Origin: an uncultured bacterium | GTDB taxonomy: Bacteria > Patescibacteriota > Minisyncoccia > Phycocordibacterales > PALSA-1337 | Length of the DNA stretch: 45,370 nucleotides | Reading direction: 5' to 3' | NCBI GenBank assembly: GCA_903825415.1 | Contig: CAIKAN010000014.1 | Location: 1-45,370 of the forward strand | Shown: positions 3,620 through 41,097 of the stretch, one piece after another | How positions within the stretch are numbered: the first letter of the stretch is position 1 | How the letters are laid out: each line of letters begins with the position of its first letter | The notes under the pieces: model-generated | What the model was told of the DNA's origin: nothing | What the model saw: the letters and a program-made list of their open reading frames with translations, nothing else | The model's database searches: none | Program-made: the position numbers and the translations under genes

Positions 3620-5035
3620 ATGAACCTAGGTAAAAAAACAAAGATAGTCTGCACGATCGGTCCAGCTTCGGAAAATAGGGAAAAGATGCTGGAACTGGTC
3701 AACTCTGGTATGAATGTCGTCAGATTGAATTTCTCACATGGCGATTTCGAAGAGCACGGCAAACGCGTGACCACTATCAGAGATATAATGAAAGAGACTG
3801 GCAAAAAGGTCGCTATCCTGCAGGATCTCTGCGGTCCAAAGATACGCATCGGAACATTCAAGGATGGTTTTGTTATGTTGTACGAAGGCAAGCAATTCAT
3901 CCTCACTACGGACGATGTTGAAGGCACCGTGGACAAAGTCCACGTCAATTATCCGGAATTACCGAAAGAAGTGAAGATCGGAGGCATGATCATGCTTCAT
4001 GACGGGCTGAAGAGGCTTCAAGTCGTGGATGTGAAAGGCAACGATATCATCACCAAGGTCATGGTCGGGGGGCGCCTAGCCAATCACAAGGGCGTCAATG
4101 TCCCAGGAGCCAATCTCTCTGTCAGCTCTCTCACCGATAAGGACAAGGCAGACGTGAAGTTCGGTATAAAGAACGAGGTGGATTTCGTCGCTCTGTCTTT
4201 TGTACGCAGAGCTGCGGACATAGTCGAGCTGCGTACGATCTTGCAGGCTGCGGGATCCAAGGCTCACATCATAGCCAAGATCGAGACCCCAGAAGCTCTC
4301 GATGATATAGACGCCATTATAGAAGTCTCTGACGCCATCATGGTGGCTCGAGGAGACCTTGCTATCGAGATACCAGCTGAAGAAGTCCCGCTGGTCCAGA
4401 AGATGATCATCCATAAATGCAATTCTATCGGCAAGCCAGTTATCACAGCGACACAGATGTTGGAGTCTATGGTCAAGAGCCCTGTGCCAACACGCGCTGA
4501 AGTGTCTGATGTCGCCAATGCCATCATAGACGGAACTGATGCGATCATGCTCTCTGAGGAGACGGCGTTGGGAGATTTCCCTGTAGAAGCGGTCAAGGTT
4601 ATGACTAAAGTCGCTCTCCGCATTGAAAAGGAAGTCTATACTCAAGATACTATCGCTGAATACAGCGAGGCTCACGATGTCACAGATGTGGTCTCGCAAT
4701 CTGCTGTCAGGACAGCTCACAGCATAGGAGCCAAGACTATAGTCGCCTTGACCCGCTCAGGCCGCACCGCGCGTCTCCTAGCAAGGTACCGTCCCGCTGA
4801 ATCTATCCTCGCATTCTCTGATGTACCAGAGAATGCCAATAAACTGATGCTCTCATTCGGATGCTATCCAATCGCCGCCCCAACGTTCACAAATGTCGAT
4901 GAGATCCTCCAGAATATCAGGAAGCTCATGCTCGAGAACAAACTAGCCAAGGAGGGTGATAAGGTTGTGATAGTGGGGGGTCAACCATTCAATAGATCAG
5001 CAGCGACCAATTTTATAGTCGTCGAGACTTTGTAG
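3620..5035 (+). CDS. pyk: Pyruvate kinase
   Basis: KTKIVCTIGPAS, RLNFSHG, IMVARGDLAIE, ATQMLESM, PTRAEVSDVANA. Confidence 0.98.
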   Translation: MNLGKKTKIVCTIGPASENREKMLELVNSGMNVVRLNFSHGDFEEHGKRVTTIRDIMKETGKKVAILQDLCGPKIRIGTFKDGFVMLYEGKQFILTTDDVEGTVDKVHVNYPELPKEVKIGGMIMLHDGLKRLQVVDVKGNDIITKVMVGGRLANHKGVNVPGANLSVSSLTDKDKADVKFGIKNEVDFVALSFVRRAADIVELRTILQAAGSKAHIIAKIETPEALDDIDAIIEVSDAIMVARGDLAIEIPAEEVPLVQKMIIHKCNSIGKPVITATQMLESMVKSPVPTRAEVSDVANAIIDGTDAIMLSEETALGDFPVEAVKVMTKVALRIEKEVYTQDTIAEYSEAHDVTDVVSQSAVRTAHSIGAKTIVALTRSGRTARLLARYRPAESILAFSDVPENANKLMLSFGCYPIAAPTFTNVDEILQNIRKLMLENKLAKEGDKVVIVGGQPFNRSAATNFIVVETL

Positions 5036-5100
5036 GACCTAGTTACCAGTGATTAGCCACTAGAATTCTGCTATTAGCGTTCACTAGTGGCTAATTCCTA
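5036..5100. repeat. Family B heptamer palindrome, copy 1
   Basis: TGATTAG CCACTAG ... CTAGTGG CTAATTC. Confidence 0.85.
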
Positions 5101-5108
5101 ACGATAGG

Positions 5109-5137
5109 TTGCATTTTATGGCCGATTCTGGTAATCT
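5109..5137 (+). promoter_or_regulatory. sigma70 promoter of rpsP (probably leaderless)
   Basis: TTGCAT-17-TAATCT with extended TG; ATG 7 nt downstream. Confidence 0.65.
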
Positions 5138-5492: not shown

Positions 5493-5508
5493 TAACCTAG
5501 AATATAGC

Positions 5509-5689
5509 AAGCTTCATGGACTGCCGCATGGCTTTCCAAGCTCGAGGACGAGTCAATTCCTGGCACGACCGGCATTTTCCAAAGACAAAGGCCGTGCATG
5601 TCCGAGAGGCCTTTGGCTTTGTGAAAATGCGGAGTGCAAGGAAATGACCCCGCAGAGCGCGGAAAGCCATACGGCAGTCCATGAAGCTT
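5509..5689. repeat. 181-bp long palindromic element (F)
   Basis: 29-bp outer arms with 1 mismatch plus nested inner stems. Confidence 0.9.
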
Positions 5690-5772
5690 ACTGATGATTG
5701 ACTGAGTTCTCATATTTGCTACAATGTCGGAAGTACAGCGAACTGTACGATTATTATTTAGTCAGAAAAAAC

Positions 5773-8336: not shown

Positions 8337-8477
8337 AATTTTCAATTTACAAATTCCAATTTACAATCAATTTGCAAGGTTCAAATTTTCAATTATCAAA
8401 CGTGTGGCGATGATTTGAAAATTAATTTATTGGAAATTGATAATTGATTGTAAATTGGAATTTGAAAATTGAAAATT
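8337..8477. repeat. Family A AT-rich heptamer inverted-repeat element, copy 1
   Basis: AATTTTC AATTTAC AAATTCC AATTTAC ... GTAAATT GGAATTT GAAAATT GAAAATT. Confidence 0.9.
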
Positions 8478-16107: not shown

Positions 16108-16186
16108 TACATGAATTTTCCCTACTTCGCTCTTGCAGAGCTCCGCGGGGCAAGCAAATTCCAATTTACAATCAATTTTCCAATTA
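16108..16186. repeat. Family A half element (copy 2) with nested family G element (16120-16154)
   Basis: tacatgaattttc[cctacttcgctc...ggggcaag]caaattccaatttacaatc. Confidence 0.8.
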
Positions 16187-16254: not shown

Positions 16255-18069
16255 ATGGACGAGCCTACTCTAGAAAATAAAGAGAAGAAGGTTGACGACA
16301 AGATCACGAAGGGCAGCCTCCTGACAGGATTCAAGGTCTTGGTCGGTTATCTTTCAAAATATCGCAAAGATATCATCTTTTTGAGCGTCATTGGCATCCT
16401 ATCCGCTATAGGGAACGGGGTCATACCGTATATCGCCGGAACATTCTTTGATTCCATAATCACTCCGGGTGCGACCATTATTCTGGGAATGTTATTGCCC
16501 ACTTATATGGCACTGCTCATTCTCTGGGCGGTGATACAGATGGCGACCTATTTCTTCGACTGGCGCATACAGATCAAGAGCGAATATCTCTCCAACTATA
16601 TTTGGCTCGATTATGTCGCGAAAGGGTTTGGCTTCCTGGTGAACTTGCCCATGTCCTTTCACAAGAAGAATAAGGTTGGCGAGATAGGCAACAAGATAAC
16701 TATGGCAGCCGGCTCATTGGAGACGATAGTGGGCAGGATAGTCATCGATCTAGCACCGCAGATATTGAGCATAGTGATCGCTCTCATCATAACATTCGCT
16801 TTAAAGCCGCTTCTGGCAGCATTCCTTTGTGTGGGCCTCATCATATACTTATTTGCGATTGTTCGGAATGTAAAACCGCTGAGCAATTATCAAAAAGAAT
16901 ATTACGAAAAAACCTCGGAAATCTACGGGGATGCTTTTGATATGATAGGGAACACGGTGGCCATAAAGCAGGCCACCGCTGAGGCCTACGAAAAGGAGAA
17001 GCTCGTTCGGAAGTCCGGAGAAGCTCTGCCTCTATGGATGAAGCAAGTGAAAGTCTGGGGTACGCTCGGTTTGTACCAGCGCCTTACCATTCTAGGGACT
17101 CAAATATTGATATTTGTATTCTCCGTTTACTATATCCATTCAGGGACTATGACTTTGGGAGAGCTTTTGGCTTTCAATGCCTATGCGGCGATGATATTCG
17201 GGCCATTCGTGACTATTGCCAGGAATTGGCAGACCATCCAGAATGGCATCATCAATATCCAGGAAACAGAGAAAATCTTGGCCATGGAGACGGAGAATTA
17301 CTCGCCGAAGGGCTCAGGCGCGTCTGTGATCCGTGGTGACATAGAATTTGATAAGGTCTCATTCTATTATGACGAAGGGAAGCCGGTCCTTCAGGATATC
17401 TCATTTTCAGTGAAGGCGGGAGATGTCATAGCTTTTGTGGGCGAATCAGGCGTGGGTAAGAGCACTCTCATCGATCTCATTTCGGCTTACCATTTCTCGA
17501 CTCAAGGGGAAGTCAAAATAGATGGACAGCCCATAAAGTCTCTCGATCTCCGTTCTCTCCGTTCGCAGATCGCGGTAGTGCCGCAGGAAGTCGTTCTATT
17601 CAACGACACGATCAAAACCAATATCAAGTATGGTAATTTCTCCGCTTCTGATGAACAAATGGAGGAGGCCGCCAAGAAAGCTCATGCTTATGACTTCATC
17701 CAGACATTTCCTTTGAAATGGGATCAAGTCGTGGGTGAGCGCGGAATCAAGCTCTCAGTGGGTCAAAAGCAGCGCGTGGCGATCGCTCGAGCTATCCTGC
17801 GCGACCCGCGCATTCTCGTCCTGGATGAACCTACAGCGGCTCTCGATGCCGGTTCAGAGAAGATCATCACTGAATCTCTCGACAAGCTCATGGAAGGCAA
17901 GACTACCTTTATCATCGCCCATCGTCTGAGTACGGTCCGCAAGGCTGATAAGATCATAGTTTTCAAGGAAGGGAAGCTTATAGAGTCGGGGACGCATGGC
18001 GAACTAATCAAGATCGAGGGAGGGGAATACAGGAGGCTGTATGAGCTTCAGATAGGGCTACATAGATGA
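16255..18069 (+). CDS. ABC exporter, fused permease/ATPase (MsbA-like)
   Basis: TM domain plus GESGVGKST, LSVGQKQR, VLDEPT, IAHRLST. Confidence 0.95.
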   Translation: MDEPTLENKEKKVDDKITKGSLLTGFKVLVGYLSKYRKDIIFLSVIGILSAIGNGVIPYIAGTFFDSIITPGATIILGMLLPTYMALLILWAVIQMATYFFDWRIQIKSEYLSNYIWLDYVAKGFGFLVNLPMSFHKKNKVGEIGNKITMAAGSLETIVGRIVIDLAPQILSIVIALIITFALKPLLAAFLCVGLIIYLFAIVRNVKPLSNYQKEYYEKTSEIYGDAFDMIGNTVAIKQATAEAYEKEKLVRKSGEALPLWMKQVKVWGTLGLYQRLTILGTQILIFVFSVYYIHSGTMTLGELLAFNAYAAMIFGPFVTIARNWQTIQNGIINIQETEKILAMETENYSPKGSGASVIRGDIEFDKVSFYYDEGKPVLQDISFSVKAGDVIAFVGESGVGKSTLIDLISAYHFSTQGEVKIDGQPIKSLDLRSLRSQIAVVPQEVVLFNDTIKTNIKYGNFSASDEQMEEAAKKAHAYDFIQTFPLKWDQVVGERGIKLSVGQKQRVAIARAILRDPRILVLDEPTAALDAGSEKIITESLDKLMEGKTTFIIAHRLSTVRKADKIIVFKEGKLIESGTHGELIKIEGGEYRRLYELQIGLHR

Positions 18070-18104
18070 TTGTTTTGGTCACCGAAATATGCTATATATT
18101 CACC

Positions 18105-18317
18105 ATGACCACCAAAGCTATGGAAAAGACTATCAGGATTCTATCAAAAGAAGTCAACACGCTTCGTTCATTTTTCATTGATGCGATAAACAGCAGAGAT
18201 GATGAAGGCGCATATAAGGCCGTTTTCGTGAGGGAAGTGTTGAAGGCTGCAAAGCAGAAGGCAGCATTTCAATACTCAGGTAAGGGATCTTTGCTACAGC
18301 AGATCAAGGCTCTATGA
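18105..18317 (+). CDS. Putative antitoxin
   Basis: Small ORF overlapping the toxin start (ATGA); start ATG 18105 assumed. Confidence 0.65.
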   Translation: MTTKAMEKTIRILSKEVNTLRSFFIDAINSRDDEGAYKAVFVREVLKAAKQKAAFQYSGKGSLLQQIKAL

Positions 18318-18574
18318 AGATAGTCTATTCAAAAGATTTCATTAAGCAAGCTTCGACTCTCCCAAAGAAAGCTCAAGAAATGTTGGATGTCTCCATGCAT
18401 GTCTTATCAAGAAATCCCTTTTATCCGACTCTGCATACCAAGAATTTGAAAGGAGAGTTGAGTCGGATGTTTTCATTTCGGATAACGAGGGACTGGCGTG
18501 TTATTTTTGTATTTGAAGATAATGACACGATTAGGCTGGTGAAAATAGGTAATAGGAAGGATATCTATAGATAG
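18314..18574 (+). CDS. RelE/ParE (YafQ-like) toxin
   Basis: IVYSKDFIKQ...LHTKNLKG...FSFRITRDWRVIF...IGNRKDIYR. Confidence 0.85.
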   Translation: MKIVYSKDFIKQASTLPKKAQEMLDVSMHVLSRNPFYPTLHTKNLKGELSRMFSFRITRDWRVIFVFEDNDTIRLVKIGNRKDIYR

Positions 18575-18926: not shown

Positions 18927-20792
18927 ATGAATCGCAATGTTGTAGACCAGATAAAGGCCCGATTGCAGATAGAAGACGTCATCGGCTCCTATGTGAAGCT
19001 CGAGCATGCCGGCAAATCGCTGAAGGCCAAATGCCCGTTTCATAATGAGAAAAGCGCATCCTTTTTCGTTTCACCAGATAGGGGAGGATACTACTGTTTC
19101 GGCTGCGGCGCTAAGGGAGATATTTTCACTTTTGTGGAGCAATTCGAGGGACTAGATTTCCGAGGAGCTTTGAAGGTTCTTGCGGAGAAGGCAGGAGTGC
19201 CATTGGTTTTCGATCAGAAGGCGGATGGAGAGCGAGATAGGCTTTACGCTGTAATGGAGGAAGCGGCTAAATACTTTGAGGCGCAGTTAATTAATTCAAA
19301 AGAGGCAACTGAATATGTGAATGGGCGTGGCATCAATGATTCAACCAAGAAAGAATTTCGAATTGGCTGGGCGCCTGACGCTTGGAGGAATCTTTCTGTT
19401 TACTTGAAAGGAAAAGGATTCAATGAATCAGCGATGGAGAAAGCAGGATTAGTGAAGAAGAAAGAGGTTGAGCAATCCGTTGAGGCGAGAAAGGTCGGAG
19501 AGTCGCCCGATAGGGCGATCTCGTCGACCTTTGTCGCCGATAAAAGGATTGCTCAACCGGTCGCAAGTAATTCTAATTCCAACTGTTATGATCGCTTTCG
19601 AGGAAGAATAATGTTTCCAATCTTCGATTCAAGCGGTCGCGTTATCGCATTCTCTGGGCGGATCTTGAAAGCTGATGATCAGAGTGCTAAATACATTAAT
19701 AGTCCCGATACTCCTTTGTATGATAAATCCCAAGTCCTTTATGGATTGGATAAGGCCAAGAATGAGATCAGGCGCATGAATTATTCCATCTTCGTAGAAG
19801 GGCAGATGGATTTGGTCATGTCACATCAGGCGGGGATAAAGAATACTGTGGCTGCTTCCGGTACGGCTATGGGGGATGAAGTGGCGAATGAAGCGGGAAT
19901 AGTCAGCAATCTCGGTCTTGTTAGAAGGCTTTCTCCTAATGTCATAATCGCCTTCGATTCTGATTCGGCGGGTAAGAAGGCTTCTATGAGAGCTGCGGGC
20001 ATAGCTTTGTCTCTAGGGATGGATGTGAAGATTGCCGAGATCGTTGGCGGTAAAGATCCCGCTGATCTGGTTAAGGTGAATGTAGAGAATTGGAAAACTG
20101 TTTTGAGAAATGCCAAGCCGATAGTCGAATTCGAGCTGAACAATGTTTTGGCTGATAACCCGGATCCGCGTAAATTACCACGCGCTTTGCGAGAACGAGT
20201 TTTCCCATTCTTGGTAAAGATAGATAGCTCCATGGACAAGGCCCATTTCGTGAAGATGATCGCTGATCGGGCCAAGATTACCGAGAGCGCCGTTTGGGAA
20301 GACTTGAAGAAGATGCCGATTTCGGGAGGTCCGACCTCCAGAGCTCCGAGTGATTCGGGAGGTCCGACCTCCAGAAATCAACCAGCCGGCGGCCACATCG
20401 ACCTTGTCTCTCGCCGCATATTCGGCTTGCTCGCTCTGATGGATAAAAAGATCAAGGAAGAAGCCGAAAAATATCGCGAGCTGATGAAAAAGATCGCTGG
20501 TGACCGCTATGAAGATCATGTGAAAAGATCATCTGCGACCATGGTCGACCATGTATTCGAAGCTGAGGCTTTATATGGAGACGATGAGCCTTCATGGCAT
20601 CGCCATATGAAAGAGCTTCTTTTCAATTATGAGATAGATATGATAAATGATGAGCTTGTGAAGACGATGCAGGAATTGAAAGCCGCTGAACACGCCAATG
20701 ATCAAGGTTTGGTCATAGAATTGGCAAAGAAATGCCAGGCATTATCTATCAGGAAAGCGGAAGTGGCGAAGAAAGGAAGGGACGCGCTATAA
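18927..20792 (+). CDS. dnaG: DNA primase
   Basis: CPFHNEK...CFGCG zinc finger, DRFRGRIMFPI, KYINSPDT, FVEGQMD, AFDSDSAG; start ATG 18927. Confidence 0.97.
   Translation: MNRNVVDQIKARLQIEDVIGSYVKLEHAGKSLKAKCPFHNEKSASFFVSPDRGGYYCFGCGAKGDIFTFVEQFEGLDFRGALKVLAEKAGVPLVFDQKADGERDRLYAVMEEAAKYFEAQLINSKEATEYVNGRGINDSTKKEFRIGWAPDAWRNLSVYLKGKGFNESAMEKAGLVKKKEVEQSVEARKVGESPDRAISSTFVADKRIAQPVASNSNSNCYDRFRGRIMFPIFDSSGRVIAFSGRILKADDQSAKYINSPDTPLYDKSQVLYGLDKAKNEIRRMNYSIFVEGQMDLVMSHQAGIKNTVAASGTAMGDEVANEAGIVSNLGLVRRLSPNVIIAFDSDSAGKKASMRAAGIALSLGMDVKIAEIVGGKDPADLVKVNVENWKTVLRNAKPIVEFELNNVLADNPDPRKLPRALRERVFPFLVKIDSSMDKAHFVKMIADRAKITESAVWEDLKKMPISGGPTSRAPSDSGGPTSRNQPAGGHIDLVSRRIFGLLALMDKKIKEEAEKYRELMKKIAGDRYEDHVKRSSATMVDHVFEAEALYGDDEPSWHRHMKELLFNYEIDMINDELVKTMQELKAAEHANDQGLVIELAKKCQALSIRKAEVAKKGRDAL
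19466..19558. repeat. 93-bp palindromic element inserted in frame in dnaG
   Basis: GGTTGAGCAATCC/GGATTGCTCAACC arms with two nested stems. Confidence 0.85.
20325..20372. repeat. Family E palindrome pair (GGAGGTCCGACCTCC x2) inside dnaG
   Basis: 20325-20339 and 20358-20372. Confidence 0.9.
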
Positions 20793-20799
20793 TACTCCC

Positions 20800-21528
20800 A
20801 TGCAGACATACGCCATCCGTTCCAATGCGATGTTCCTCGACCGGCCCTTTCGTGAGTATGTGCTCACGATTAAGGATCTGCCGTCGGAAGAGAAGCCTCG
20901 CGAAAAAATCATAGCTCAGGGTCCCGAATCATTGAGTATTCGAGAGCTTTTGGCTTTAGTATTGATCAATGGGACGGTCAAAGAAGATGTCTTGGAAATG
21001 ACCAATCGCATCATCCGTGAATATGGCGAAAAGAGCATATTATCGGAGAAGAGCGCCGAGAAGCTTTCCAAAGACGTCGATATCCCCATAGTCAAAGCCT
21101 GCCAGATCGTGGCTTGTGGGGAATTGGGCCGTCGCTTCTTTGATCGGAGCCAGAATGGCTTTACGACGATCCGTAGCGCCAAAGACGCGTATGAATATCT
21201 GCAGGATATGCGCAATCTGCCAAAAGAGCATCTTAGAGGCTTGTATCTGAACAGCCACAATAGGGTCATCCGTGATGAAGTCATTTCTATCGGTACCATC
21301 AATTCCAATATGATCCATCCCCGCGAAGTTTTCAGACCAGCCATAGAATCTAACGCTTCCGCCGTAGTCTTGGCGCACAATCATCCTTCGGGAGAAGCTG
21401 TCGCCAGTCCGGAAGATATCGAGATCACCAAGCAGCTCATCCAAGCGGGCAAAATCCTAGGCATCTCCTTGCTCGACCATGTCATCATCACCAAAGATGC
21501 TTTTTCAAGCATCGAAGCGAACTATTAA
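20800..21528 (+). CDS. radC: RadC-like JAB domain protein
   Basis: EKPREK, HPREVF, LAHNHPSG, SPEDI, LLDHVII. Confidence 0.95.
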   Translation: MQTYAIRSNAMFLDRPFREYVLTIKDLPSEEKPREKIIAQGPESLSIRELLALVLINGTVKEDVLEMTNRIIREYGEKSILSEKSAEKLSKDVDIPIVKACQIVACGELGRRFFDRSQNGFTTIRSAKDAYEYLQDMRNLPKEHLRGLYLNSHNRVIRDEVISIGTINSNMIHPREVFRPAIESNASAVVLAHNHPSGEAVASPEDIEITKQLIQAGKILGISLLDHVIITKDAFSSIEANY

Positions 21529-21591
21529 GCAGTTGAAGGAATTTTAACTTAAATATAGACATTGAAGTTCTAGCGGGGTGATATCTCCTAG

Positions 21592-21800
21592 AATTTTCAA
21601 TTTACAAATTCCAATTTACAATGAATTTACAATGTTCAAATTATCAACTATCAGATACGGGTATGTATCCTGTTTGAAAATTTCTCAATTGAAAATTCAT
21701 TGTAAATTGGAATTTGCCTGCCCTGCGAAGCTCCGAGGTAACTTGTGGTGAGCTAGTCGAACCACGAGGAGCGAAGTAGGGAAAATTGAAAATTCATGTA
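21592..21800. repeat. Family A element, copy 3, with nested G element (21717-21781) that itself holds a hairpin (21742-21768)
   Basis: Right arm interrupted at gaatttg|aaaatt by a 65-bp GC-rich insert. Confidence 0.9.
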
Positions 21801-22180: not shown

Positions 22181-22194
22181 GATAGTAGGGCCTG

Positions 22195-22267
22195 GCCACT
22201 AGTGATTAGCCACTAGTATCTTGCTGCTGACGTTCACTAGTGGCTAAACCCTAGTGGCTAGTCGCTT
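22195..22267. repeat. Family B heptamer palindrome, copy 2
   Basis: CCACTAG TGATTAG CCACTAG ... CTAGTGG CTAAACC CTAGTGG CTAGTCG. Confidence 0.9.
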
Positions 22268-25038: not shown

Positions 25039-25045
25039 GCGAAGT

Positions 25046-25204
25046 GTCATTTACACGAATTTTCAATTTTCAAATTCCAATTTTCAATCAATGTTCAATG
25101 ATCAAATTCTCAATTGACGCATCTATTAGCGATCGCTTGAAAATTCATTCATTGTAAATTCATTGAAAATTGGAATTTGAAAATTGAAAATTCGTGTAAA
25201 TGAC
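25046..25204. repeat. Family A element, copy 4 (43-bp perfect terminal IR)
   Basis: gtcatttacacgaattttcaattttcaaattccaattttcaat and its exact reverse complement. Confidence 0.95.
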
Positions 25205-25205
25205 G

Positions 25206-26645
25206 TCAAGAGATGATATTTATAGTTTCCTCAATCATCCCTCTGAATCCATGCGATCCTAGAAAGGCGATCACGTCGCCTTTTTCCGAATTGGCTTTGA
25301 GAAAGCTCACAACCTCCTCATCATTTTCAATGAAATGGACATTAGAGTGAGTCTTTTTTATTATAGCGGCTAGCTCTTCTCCTTCTATCGGCTTTTCTGA
25401 ATCATCACTTGCCGCTTTTAATTTCGTGAGCCTCGGTATCACTAAAATGTCCGCATCTTTGAAGGCGCCGTTATATTTACCGACCGACTCTCTGCTTCGG
25501 CCGCCGCTATTTGGTTCAAACACACAGATAATCTTTCCTTGGTATATGGCCTGAAGAGTCGCGAGGACTGAAGAGGCTTTTTCAGGGGAATGGGCGATAT
25601 CGTCTATTATGGTCACGCCTTTCTTGGTGACATCTCCGTCGGCTCGCTTTTCTAGCCTCCTTTTTAGCCCGTTGAATTCAGAGATAGCCTCGACAATGGA
25701 GTCTGAATTGATGCCAAGCTTATGGGCCATGGCGAAGCAACCAGCTATATTCTCAGCTTGGAAAGAGCCGAGCATCGGAGAGCGCACTGTATAATTGACC
25801 CCTTCACACGAGATATTGAATTCAAGGCCGCGACTAGACTGGATCACATTGCCATAGCTGCAATAGAGCTTGGTTCCGTCATCTCTGGCCTTCCCGTAGA
25901 AGGCTTTGTCACCTCTGAATATATTCATAAGCCTCATGACTGCGGCGTTGTCCGCACATCCGACAATGAAGCCTTTGTCTGGTACCATTTCGAATAGCTT
26001 CTCAAAAGCATTGAAATAATCTTTTTCCGTTGGGTATAGATCGGCATGATCCCATGATATGGCGCTCAGCAATAGGTGAGTGGGTTTGTAATAGAAAAAC
26101 TTGGCCCTAGGATCAGTGGGCGAGCTCTTGTATTCATCGCCTTCGAAGACGCTCCAAGTGCTGTTCGTCAGTCTTGCCGAAGAATCATGAGAGAGAGATA
26201 CTCCACCGAACATATATGTCGGATCAAGGCCGGCTTTGATCATGATGAATGACAGAAGCGCTGAAGAAGAAGTCTTGCCCCACGTCCCAGCGCAGACTAT
26301 AGAATTTTCCCTAGCGAAGTATTTGCCTATAGCTTCAGCGAAAGAGTAGATTGGAATACCATTCTCCTTGGCATAGGTAGTCTCGGGATTTTGGCTGCCG
26401 GAAGCTGTGCCGACTATGACTATATCCGGCACGCCTTTCTCGACCATCTTCTCCACATGCCAGCCCGCATAGAAGTCTATCTGGTGCTTCTCCAATTCGA
26501 TAGAAATAGGAGGGAAGAAGCCTTTGTCGCTGCCGCTTACGGCTATGCCTATATCGTGAAAGGCTATGGCTAGTGCGCTGGTGGCTACGCCGCAAATGCC
26601 TATGACATGGACTCTTTTTGGCAATTCTTGTGCGGTTGCATTCAT
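25206..26645 (-). CDS. mpl: Mpl/MurC-family ligase (most like murein peptide ligase Mpl)
   Basis: HVIGICG, DKGFFPPIS, AGTWGKTSS, EGDEY, WDHADLY, DDIAHSP, FEPNS. Confidence 0.8.
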   Translation of the reverse strand: MNATAQELPKRVHVIGICGVATSALAIAFHDIGIAVSGSDKGFFPPISIELEKHQIDFYAGWHVEKMVEKGVPDIVIVGTASGSQNPETTYAKENGIPIYSFAEAIGKYFARENSIVCAGTWGKTSSSALLSFIMIKAGLDPTYMFGGVSLSHDSSARLTNSTWSVFEGDEYKSSPTDPRAKFFYYKPTHLLLSAISWDHADLYPTEKDYFNAFEKLFEMVPDKGFIVGCADNAAVMRLMNIFRGDKAFYGKARDDGTKLYCSYGNVIQSSRGLEFNISCEGVNYTVRSPMLGSFQAENIAGCFAMAHKLGINSDSIVEAISEFNGLKRRLEKRADGDVTKKGVTIIDDIAHSPEKASSVLATLQAIYQGKIICVFEPNSGGRSRESVGKYNGAFKDADILVIPRLTKLKAASDDSEKPIEGEELAAIIKKTHSNVHFIENDEEVVSFLKANSEKGDVIAFLGSHGFRGMIEETINIIS

Positions 26646-33364: not shown

Positions 33365-33446
33365 AAGCGACTAGCCACTAGTGATTAGCCACTAGGGTTT
33401 TGCTGCTGGCGTCAACTAGTGGCTATACCCTAGTGGCCAATCACTA
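33365..33446. repeat. Family B heptamer palindrome, copy 3
   Basis: CGACTAG CCACTAG TGATTAG CCACTAG ... CTAGTGG CTATACC CTAGTGG CCAATCA. Confidence 0.9.
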
Positions 33447-34318: not shown

Positions 34319-34450
34319 AACATCTAGTGGAGGCTGAGTGGGCATATCGCCTAAACGCCAAAACGAAATGGGAAACCACCGCCACAGATGTCTTGCTAAA
34401 TTCGGCTTTGGCGTTTAGGCGATATGCCCACTCGGCTTAGTACAGATGTT
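34319..34450. repeat. 132-bp palindromic element (I)
   Basis: 27-bp perfect arms 34336-34362 and 34407-34433. Confidence 0.9.
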
Positions 34451-36954: not shown

Positions 36955-36963
36955 TAGTCTATT

Positions 36964-37056
36964 CCGAAGGTCCGACCTTCGGCAGCATACCTAGTTCAAA
37001 ACTAGGCAATGTTTTAGCTGTATTTTGAGGCTTCGGCGAAGGTCCGACCTTCGCCG
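36964..37056. repeat. Family E palindrome pair, intergenic (CGAAGGTCCGACCTTCG)
   Basis: 36964-36982 and 37034-37056. Confidence 0.9.
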
Positions 37057-37071
37057 TGAAATCTGCGGAAA

Positions 37072-37866
37072 TCAGAACACCACCTGCGAGAGGATAACGA
37101 CTACCGCTGTTTCAGCTCGCAAAACCTGGCTCCCTAGACAAATGACGGGTATTTTATTCTCGTGAAACAAACTTATCTCATCGGGAGACCAGCCTCCTTC
37201 TGGGCCTATGAAAACTGCTATCGGGAGGTCCGACCTCCCGAATTTCTGGAGGTCCGACCTCCAGGATACTCCCTCTGTGTGGAAAGCTATCGATTTGGTA
37301 TTTACCGGAATCAAATGACCGCTCGAATGTCCATCGGGTTCGATCTCTTTTGACTCGGTATCTGAATGAGCAGCGCTATTACCAAGCGAGGCACGATCGA
37401 CTATCAGTTCATTCAAGGAGATTATTCCATGAATGGTAGGCACACTCCCTCTCCCGCTCTGCTCGCTCGCTTCAAGAGCGATCTTTTTCAGGCGTTCCTC
37501 ATTCAAGGACTTCTTCTCGCTCCTTTCGGAAATGACGGGAATGATATGGGTCACGCCCAATTCTGTGGCTTTCTCCACTATCCATTCAAAGTTATCTTTT
37601 TTCACTATCGATGCGCATAGGTAGATATCTCGCGTTGGCATATATCGGCTCTTCATTGTTTCTTTGATAATGAAAGATGCCGAATCTTTTTGTAAGTCTA
37701 AGATAGAGCAGATGAAATCGTTTCCTGATCCATCGAACAAGACGACCTCATCGCCCTTCTTCAGACGGAAGACATGCGAAAGCTGATTCACCATATCTTT
37801 TCCTTGAATGGTGATCTCTTCGGTCACGCCTAGTTTTTCATTCACGAAGAAGCGGTGCAGACGCAT
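37072..37866 (-). CDS. rsmE: 16S rRNA m3U1498 methyltransferase
   Basis: HVFRL, EKATELGV, EASEQSGR, FIGPEGGW, LGSQVLRAETA. Confidence 0.95.
   Translation of the reverse strand: MRLHRFFVNEKLGVTEEITIQGKDMVNQLSHVFRLKKGDEVVLFDGSGNDFICSILDLQKDSASFIIKETMKSRYMPTRDIYLCASIVKKDNFEWIVEKATELGVTHIIPVISERSEKKSLNEERLKKIALEASEQSGRGSVPTIHGIISLNELIVDRASLGNSAAHSDTESKEIEPDGHSSGHLIPVNTKSIAFHTEGVSWRSDLQKFGRSDLPIAVFIGPEGGWSPDEISLFHENKIPVICLGSQVLRAETAVVVILSQVVF
37224..37262. repeat. Family E palindrome pair inside rsmE
   Basis: GGAGGTCCGACCTCC at 37224 and 37248. Confidence 0.9.
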
Positions 37867-40775: not shown

Positions 40776-40782
40776 TTACTAA

Positions 40783-40937
40783 AAAGCCGGGCGGAATACC
40801 TTTTCTTTGTATCGGTTAAGGTCGCCCTGGTCAATTGCAACCGTATCTTGCCTTGCCAGAGGCGGCAAGATACGGGCAATTGTCAGCGGGCTCAGATCAC
40901 ATTAACCGATACAAAGAAAAGGTATTCCGCCCGGCTT
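40783..40937 (+). repeat. Family D palindromic element, copy 2 (36-bp perfect outer IR)
   Basis: aagccgggcggaataccttttctttgtatcggttaa and its exact reverse complement. Confidence 0.93.
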
Positions 40938-41097
40938 CCAATTCTTGCAAAAAGATATCAACAGTGACGTAATATGAGGGTCATTGCTTAAAATACGGCT
41001 TACTATATAATAATGAGCGTAGTTCGAAACTCGATCTGATTTCGCAGGTCAGCGAAAGAAGGGCCGAGACCATATTATTAACATTAAGTACACAATA

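Follow-up and report, generated by a model that had tools for sequence, protein, structure and literature searches.

The Rickettsia palindromic elements (RPEs), as summarised in PMC10969869 and PMC3733652, are palindromic elements carried in frame (Ogata et al., 2000/2002), and 44 insertions have been counted in the genes of Rickettsia conorii, often in frame (PMC10969869). Palindromic repeats of the REP type occur within genes for replication and repair, and related species can have them at about the same site; for example, different REPs occupy about one site in the recB gene of Xanthomonas (Di Nocera et al., 2013; PMC3733652). In the main text of PMC3733652, the terms "primase" and "dnaG" have 0 mentions. 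Bacterial MITEs, including Correia, ERIC, RUP and others, are described in PMC10969869 as small, non-coding repeats that are mobile, adopt hairpin folds and at times give rise to in-frame fusions.

Here, we describe a 93-nt palindromic element that lies in frame within dnaG, the DNA primase gene, of a freshwater bacterium; the window referred to throughout is the whole stretch of DNA that was analysed, 45,370 nt in length. The host, which an earlier note on this DNA had taken for a probable member of the candidate phyla radiation (CPR), does appear to belong there, as its nearest DnaG proteins bear the source names Candidatus Taylorbacteria and Paceibacterota. No description of such inserts in CPR bacteria was found in the literature searched, a search outside which most subscription journals lay and which is not proof of absence.

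Compared to RPEs as portrayed in these summaries, the locus offers several likenesses: a hairpin repeat of approximately 100 nt (93 nt, −69 kcal/mol), a reduced genome, an in-frame position in housekeeping genes, a predicted extra surface segment that fits the protein fold, the coexistence of several families, and the lack of a known transposase. The parallel with RPEs had already been drawn in the earlier note, and it is supported by two other genes, both in another species, that carry a homologous core in frame. However, the likeness drawn here is one of features, and with a CPR (Taylorbacteria-like) host the element is not an RPE in the strict sense. Unlike RPEs, with their many dispersed copies, it has very few copies per genome (one in its own genome, G000, two in G085, and a weak one in G069); its core is conserved while its outer stems are copy-specific, and one protein turn has been struck repeatedly by unrelated families.

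The element also resembles intragenic REPs and the GTAG/CGTC REP dimers associated with RAYT in being a palindromic repeat inside a replication gene. The genome contains a RAYT-like gene, immediately preceded by REP-like palindromes, and two such palindromes lie in frame further down dnaG. In contrast to REPs and REPINs, the 93-nt element lacks GTAG and has one internal CGTC, which is not at an end; nor is it a dimer of the genome's own palindrome AGGTCSGACCT, with which it shares only the hexamer AGGTCG, once per arm. With MITEs, as summarised in the source cited above, it has in common the small size, the hairpin fold and the in-frame fusion. Unlike MITEs, which have conserved terminal inverted repeats and target-site duplications, it has ends that differ between copies, and no duplication is seen; the MITE-like family at the same dnaG turn is instead that of G002, which has a conserved 33-nt terminal repeat.

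The architecture of the element can be read directly from the DNA (Table 1). It is a near-perfect hairpin on the forward strand, and all of the details given in the earlier note, namely an outer inverted repeat of 13 bp without mismatches, an inner stem of 14 bp with a single mismatch, the apex TCGCCC-GATA-GGGCGA, and a length of exactly 31 codons in frame in a DNA primase, were confirmed on reading. No stop codon interrupts the frame in use, and the element begins at codon position 3, although its length is a whole number of codons. The predicted RNA fold of positions 19456-19568 has an energy of −69.2 kcal/mol, compared to −31.7 ± 3.5 kcal/mol for 200 dinucleotide-preserving shuffles (z −10.6; 0/200 shuffles as good). 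Against Rfam 15, nothing reached the gathering score, the only matches being generic hairpin look-alikes (eukaryotic microRNA precursors, 29 bits where the gathering score is 79). In an independent lake-water study, a contig of 275 nt matches positions 19289-19563 with 0 differences; the element is therefore not an assembly artefact of one sample, and that explanation was rejected. Contigs from four runs contained no joint or indel at the element, within the limits of contigs, which cannot reveal rare variants.

Table 1. Coordinates of dnaG, of the palindromic element and its parts, and of neighbouring features (positions in the window).
Feature	Position	Strand	Support
dnaG (DNA primase) open frame, 641 codons	18867..20792	+	ORF list; Pfam Zn_ribbon_DnaG 7e-31, DNAG_N 7e-39, Toprim; match in 40/41 related genomes; AlphaFold mean pLDDT 83.8
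93-nt palindromic element, in frame, encoding VEQSVEARKVGESPDRAISSTFVADKRIAQP	19466..19558	+	fold z −10.6; covariance model R1 104.5 bits; absent from 12/23 genus DnaGs and 4/4 outgroups; pLDDT <50 at residues 183-215
Outer 13-bp stem, left arm (GGTTGAGCAATCC), copy-specific	19466..19478	+	exact reverse complement of 19546-19558; 9/12 outer pairs differ on both sides among three family copies
Conserved family core: 14-bp inner stem (1 mismatch) and apical hairpin, loop GATA at 19509-19512	19479..19545	+	52/67 identity to G085 secA copy, 49/67 to G085 comEC copy
Outer 13-bp stem, right arm (GGATTGCTCAACC), copy-specific	19546..19558	+	exact reverse complement of 19466-19478; 9/12 outer pairs differ on both sides
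Non-palindromic rest of the enlarged turn, VASNSNSNC, before YDRFRGR	19559..19585	+	alignment with relatives
REP-like palindrome of 22 nt (core AGGTCSGACCT), present twice and in frame within the linker that precedes the C-terminal domain; each copy read as GGPTSR	20321..20375	+	repeat family D5; 65 genome copies, 37 inside frames of at least 150 aa; pLDDT <50 at residues 468-488; closest relative (P0002) has other sequence there

Comparison with other primases identifies the segment as an addition to the protein. DnaG was taken from 40 related genomes, and 27 full frames were aligned (23 from the genus and four from other families of the order); the alignment of relatives begins at the ATG at position 18927, which is likely the true start of dnaG. 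The spacing from EKAGL to YDRFRGR is 44 residues in the DnaG of the window, whereas a short turn is present in 12 of the 23 genus proteins (8-15 residues) and in 4/4 from other families of the order (7-10 residues); in relatives and solved primases, it typically spans about 8-11 residues. Alignments with solved primases (5guj, 5vaz, 4e2k, 1dd9 and others) break into two stretches from which exactly the insert is missing, and in 5guj the insert point falls between the consecutive residues 83 and 84, leaving 0 residues opposite the insert. The Pfam DNAG_N domain was likewise matched as two stretches, split at the position of the element. Judged from these alignments, the 93-nt segment is an insertion and not a conserved segment of DnaG. 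The earlier note had placed it between AGLV and YDRFRGR, where few residues are normally present, and both the site and the indel boundaries agree with the related and solved proteins. Related DnaGs do not share a segment of the same length encoded by non-palindromic DNA; their segments vary in length, and many of them are also palindromic.

An AlphaFold model of the 621-aa DnaG (64 sequences) shows how such an insertion could be accommodated. The model is confident overall, and pLDDT falls below 50 in two segments only, the insert itself and the segment encoded by the two small palindromes (Table 1), both of which are palindrome-derived. The insert lies between strands 176-178 and 220-222, at the predicted protein surface, and is compatible with the fold of the remainder. 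The 93 nt are probably read as a floppy surface loop of 31 residues. An intein or mini-intein was considered and rejected: Pfam lists primase domains only, and the 31 residues are predicted to be disordered.

The age and turnover of the loop can be gauged from the closest relative, P0002, which was found by protein search and bears the source name Candidatus Taylorbacteria. This protein is 82% identical to the DnaG of the window overall and nearly identical over long stretches outside the variable loops. It carries the element peptide at the identical site of dnaG; the insertion is thus older than the split of the two lineages. P0002 also has 32 extra residues immediately before the element and seven extra residues after it. 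The dnaG loop turns over much faster than the remainder of the gene. The peptides that flank the element in P0002 fit a different outer stem, 12/13 complementary, which is deduced solely from the protein; among 300 random pentapeptides, 5 fit equally well.

Further copies were sought at several scales. Neither BLAST nor a covariance model (R1) found another copy in its own 1.05-Mb genome. A BLAST search over 93 genomes of the genus returned one relative, located in G085 and lying in frame close to the SecA N-terminus, and R1 was built from these two copies (the dnaG of the window and the secA of G085). Over the same 93 genomes, R1 recovered the G085 secA copy at 113 bits and a further copy in a comEC-like gene of G085, which encodes a membrane protein, at 74.6 bits, both in frame, together with a weak match of 38 bits in G069 that is intergenic, between trpS and scpA. 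The family amounts to four loci in 93 genus genomes. In-frame and intergenic copies, for which the earlier note had suggested a search, were found in other species of the genus, but in its own genome the element is single-copy. Beyond the genus genomes, a strict core pattern applied to one genome per species found only the two G085 copies; a looser pattern over metagenome contigs gave four loci, comprising the same secA and comEC copies plus two chance matches in unrelated high-GC DNA; and R1 over 150 genomes of the order gave no match outside G000. On these searches, the element is a member of a small repeat family restricted to the genus. With only four loci in the genus, and none in the order or in the two collection scans, active mobility is read from few copies.

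The copies share a core of approximately 70 nt, and the G085 secA copy also folds stably (−83.5 kcal/mol, z −9.3). All three coding copies use the core in one reading frame, with the shared pattern VEA..V.ES...AIS.T..AD.R, while 4-5 of the six frames are open in each; agreement of three copies in one frame is a coincidence of roughly 1 in 16, and the peptide could matter. The identity of the core between the window and the G085 copies is 73-78% (fractions in Table 1). By comparison, the overall DNA identity of the dnaG genes of G000 and G085 is 63%, and at third codon positions it falls to 39%, indicating that the copies are either younger than the split of the species or under constraint. The marks of a conventional transposition system were not seen: no terminal repeat common to the copies was apparent by eye among the own, G085, G017 and G002 copies; no direct repeat resembling a target-site duplication lies beside the own, secA or comEC copies, nor was one seen by eye in the G085, G017 and G002 copies; and no partner transposase was found, the search for an IS110-type enzyme giving none and the sole Y1/RAYT match belonging to another repeat.

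The two arms of the hairpin have changed together. Among 40 predicted pairs compared over the three coding copies, 19 are invariant, six have changed on one side and 15 on both, the changes on both sides covering the outer pairs listed in Table 1 and several core pairs. The outer stems are near-unrelated between copies (10-12 of 24-26 positions shared, compared to 73-84% in the core). Shared cores with copy-specific, complementary ends were also seen in the two copies of the G017 element and in a 12-copy family of approximately 160 nt in the window's own genome. Wobbles of the G-U type occur among the changed pairs alongside A-C mismatches and are not clearly in excess in these few events; since A-C mismatches occur beside the wobbles, there is no sign of selection on the sense RNA. 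Correction of quasi-palindromes by template switching, following the Ripley model and work in E. coli, would explain paired changes in the arms without selection. It is a mutational process and not an element, and it leaves the copies in other genes unexplained.

The wider genome is rich in structures of this kind. There are 61 non-overlapping strong hairpins in G000, belonging to several families, and in-frame hairpins occur in further real genes, namely those of two cysteine-desulfurase-like proteins and of a 251-residue protein. Copies of the AGGTCSGACCT palindrome inside long frames (counts in Table 1) are read as GGPTS, EVRPP or RSDL. A RAYT-like frame on contig C94 (PF01797, 25.2 bits relative to a cut-off of 23) has three such palindromes just upstream, and the 93-nt element is not found there. 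SbcD (TIGR00619) scored above cut-off in 0/93 genomes of the genus, with eight weak matches below 24 bits; as a control, the same model was positive in 13/14 known genomes. RNase III is encoded in the genome, and an RNA stem of approximately 40 bp in an essential mRNA should for that reason bring some cost or effect.

The element turned out to be one of many inserts at the same position. In a first draw, 11 of 23 species of the genus had 23-58 extra residues at this turn of DnaG, with differing sequences, and among 119 DnaG proteins from a large protein collection about half have at least 20 residues there, with peptide signatures of known-looking repeats recurring. Mapped on a DnaG tree built without the insert, presence or absence changes seven times, at least four of these changes being forced by strongly supported branches. 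Sister pairs differ at the turn, as in G014 (insert) and G019 (none), and the sister species G017 and G024 have different inserts at the same turn. Ten dnaG inserts could be folded (30 mononucleotide shuffles each; values for L007 and L028 were left out, as their loops had been mis-anchored by the motif). Six are strong hairpins (z of −4 or lower), two are intermediate, and two are structureless (L010, z −0.4; L011, z −0.2); the existence of such decayed inserts argues against selection for the hairpin.

Several of these inserts can be traced to repeats of their own. Three other dnaG inserts, those of G002, G017 and G023, are copies of different repeats present elsewhere in the respective genomes: that of G002 is one of approximately 20 loci of the MITE-like repeat, and those of G017 and G023 each have one second copy. 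G085 and G069, which carry the family of the element in other places, have other, composite palindromic inserts at the dnaG turn. SecA presents a similar picture, with two hypervariable loops in the genus that are short in other families (5/31 loci, missed by the motif filter, are left out of this comparison). Going by coordinates, the secA N-terminal match of G023 ends within the sibling copy of that genome's dnaG element, and a G002 copy and a G017 fragment lie 11 and 23 bases past the corresponding matches in their own genomes, at the start of the second variable loop. Taken at the level of sequence, the dnaG turn is a recurrent sink for unrelated hairpin repeats. The earlier note had centred its claim on a single primase insert; the insert is real, but it is no peculiarity of this gene, since it is one case of a lineage-wide habit.

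We consider it probable that the element is a selfish hairpin repeat of the RPE-like kind, tolerated as a disordered loop of DnaG in a CPR (Taylorbacteria-like) host, corrected between its arms at the level of DNA, and able to persist without SbcCD. According to this explanation, a copy of the repeat would have entered dnaG before the divergence of G000 and P0002, landing in the turn between two beta strands in the N-terminal subdomain of the primase catalytic core. Ribosomes would read through it, its length being a multiple of three without a stop in the frame used, and the product would be a hydrophilic, disordered loop of 31 residues that the enzyme tolerates and that presumably has no role in priming. 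Complementarity would be maintained at the level of DNA, each arm being able to serve as the template for the other in hairpin-templated template switching, rather than by selection on RNA, and the absence of the SbcCD hairpin nuclease may be what lets palindromes persist in the lineage. Together with the two secA loops, the dnaG turn would then act as a sink: in gene-dense genomes, insertions would survive only where an essential protein can bear them. Some observations sit less easily with this account. Conservation of the core far exceeds that of neutral sites, which argues against pure junk unless the copies are young, and an insert at one turn in half of the genus is a high frequency for a passive sink.

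There is a stronger version of events, which we hold possible yet doubtful. Here, palindromic repeats would do more than be tolerated in proteins: they would home to palindromes already in place and, without SbcCD, would self-correct their arms, so that the DnaG turn and the two SecA loops become self-renewing nurseries, refilled again and again, their contents then decaying into low-complexity loops. The suggestion is drawn from the different elements in sister species and from the shifting outer stem between near-identical strains. If true, it would mean a lineage-wide growth of protein loops driven by DNA structure.

Homing by itself, in which a first small palindrome in the dnaG turn draws later hairpin repeats into its centre or edge, is an explanation we think unlikely. 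The site would then be a hotspot in the true sense, and the copy-specific outer stems would be what earlier residents left behind, which is consistent with the sharp borders, in two families, between a conserved core and unrelated, self-complementary outer stems. Nesting does occur in G002, where one copy of the element is enclosed by an AT-rich palindrome (L050), at its centre, and other copies themselves have AT-rich palindromes at their centre (L064, L065); the differing inserts of G017 and G024 at one turn, the composite inserts of G085 and G069, and the siblings of three dnaG inserts in or beside the second variable loop of secA point the same way. However, the orthologous P0002 copy seems to have a different outer stem, which suggests that stems can change in place without new nesting. 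Moreover, the alignment reveals no small palindrome at empty dnaG sites, and no hairpin-targeting enzyme is tied to these elements.

That the stem-loop is kept because it controls dnaG, whether by giving RNase III a target or by pausing ribosomes so that primase stays low, or as a DNA structure in replication, strikes us as highly unlikely. RNase III is encoded, about half of the genus has hairpins at this position, and the core is well conserved; yet 12/23 species of the genus and 4/4 outgroups manage without an insert, and the inserts that exist vary in sequence, length and stability, some having no pairing at all. The same elements also occur in secA, in comEC and in intergenic DNA, and the A-C mismatches found beside G-U wobbles do not point to a constraint at the RNA level.

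An origin on the spot, by template switching that duplicated local sequence in inverted orientation and produced a palindrome that never moved, is hardly credible: it would suit a palindrome-rich genome without SbcD in which the arms co-evolve, but it is largely refuted by the 67-nt core, 73-78% identical, in two unrelated genes of another species, and neither arm resembles the empty-site sequence of relatives. Least credible of all is removal of the segment before use, from the mRNA (as with rRNA intervening sequences) or from the protein (as with a mini-intein), for while insertions in rRNA genes are a known trait of CPR bacteria and the hairpin would suit the encoded RNase III, 3/3 coding copies keep the frame without stops, which excision does not require, Pfam finds no intein domain and 31 residues are too short for one, and we know of no bacterial system that rejoins mRNA.

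With the selfish, tolerated repeat as the preferred reading, the locus adds the candidate phyla radiation, and primase, to the known cases of selfish DNA inside proteins, described in Rickettsia and for intragenic REPs, and it presents one turn of an essential enzyme as open to repeated hits by unrelated hairpin repeats. There are practical consequences as well: such inserts inflate and blur the alignments of marker proteins (DnaG, SecA) used in CPR phylogenomics, and hairpins of this kind break short-read assemblies. If the arms do correct each other, and if the lineage does live without SbcCD, these bacteria would offer a natural experiment on the life and death of palindromes and on the birth of disordered protein loops.

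SecA proteins of the window's genus (loci L032 and L075–L104) contain two hypervariable insertion loops, one before ILPEAFAVVREA and the other before LDKERD..G.FK. Up to approximately 80 extra residues are found in these loops, and some of them derive from the same repeat families as the inserts in dnaG; in other families of the order, the SecA loops are short.

The genome holding the window (G000) also carries 65 copies of a REP-like palindrome with the core AGGTCSGACCT, and 37 of these lie within frames of at least 150 aa, where they read as GGPTS, EVRPP, or RSDL. A single acetyl-CoA-synthetase-like frame accounts for nine copies. Three copies directly precede the frame of a RAYT-like Y1 transposase, which is cut short by the contig end.

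Several longer hairpin families were found in the same genome (see table). Those of approximately 160, 187, and 105 nt are alike in build, with a core common to the copies and complementary ends that differ from copy to copy. AT-rich palindromes resembling those of the window also occur in another species (genome G002), where they nest with a MITE-like element, one copy of which interrupts dnaG at the same turn. At four G002 loci (L050, L064, L065, and L066), palindromes lie within palindromes: either the ~100-nt element is central within an AT-rich palindrome or, conversely, an AT-rich palindrome of ~100–110 nt is central within the element. Other G000 hairpins pair a look-alike of the tRNA 3' end (T-arm) with its own inverted copy shortly downstream, a terminator-like stem standing between the two; the T-arm likeness was judged by eye rather than by a tRNA search.

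Repeat and hairpin features of the window and of genome G000
Feature	Location	Copies in G000	Setting
AT-rich palindromic repeats of CAAATTCCAATTTACAAT-like units	window 8337-8477, 21588-21798, 25043-25207, 16138-16180		between genes
~160-nt hairpin family	window 40781-40940	12	intergenic
~187-nt hairpin family	window 5506-5692	4	intergenic
~105-nt hairpin family	window 34333-34436	6	intergenic
~75-nt hairpin family from CCACTAGTGGCTA units	window 5034-5113, 22187-22266, 33366-33445	7 strong	
AGGTCSGACCT REP-like palindrome	window 20321-20375, 36962-36983, 37220-37265		
RAYT-like site with AGGTCSGACCT palindromes	contig C94 (L074 1174-1866)		
tRNA-3'-end-like hairpins	contigs C25 4641-4752, C90 27100-27217, C6 4374-4467, C79 5356-5459		

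None of the 93 genus genomes searched yielded a gene for the hairpin nuclease SbcD above the family cut-off; RNase III is encoded in G000.

Judged by eye, dnaG is preceded by a likely toxin-antitoxin pair of short frames that overlap each other (window 18066-18574), and a downstream frame (20800-21528) shows a RadC/JAB-like HNHPSG motif. The nearest DnaG proteins carry the names Candidatus Taylorbacteria or Paceibacterota. G085, the genome behind L068 and L069, is labelled Candidatus Saccharibacteria yet is placed in the window's genus; the submitter's label is probably wrong.
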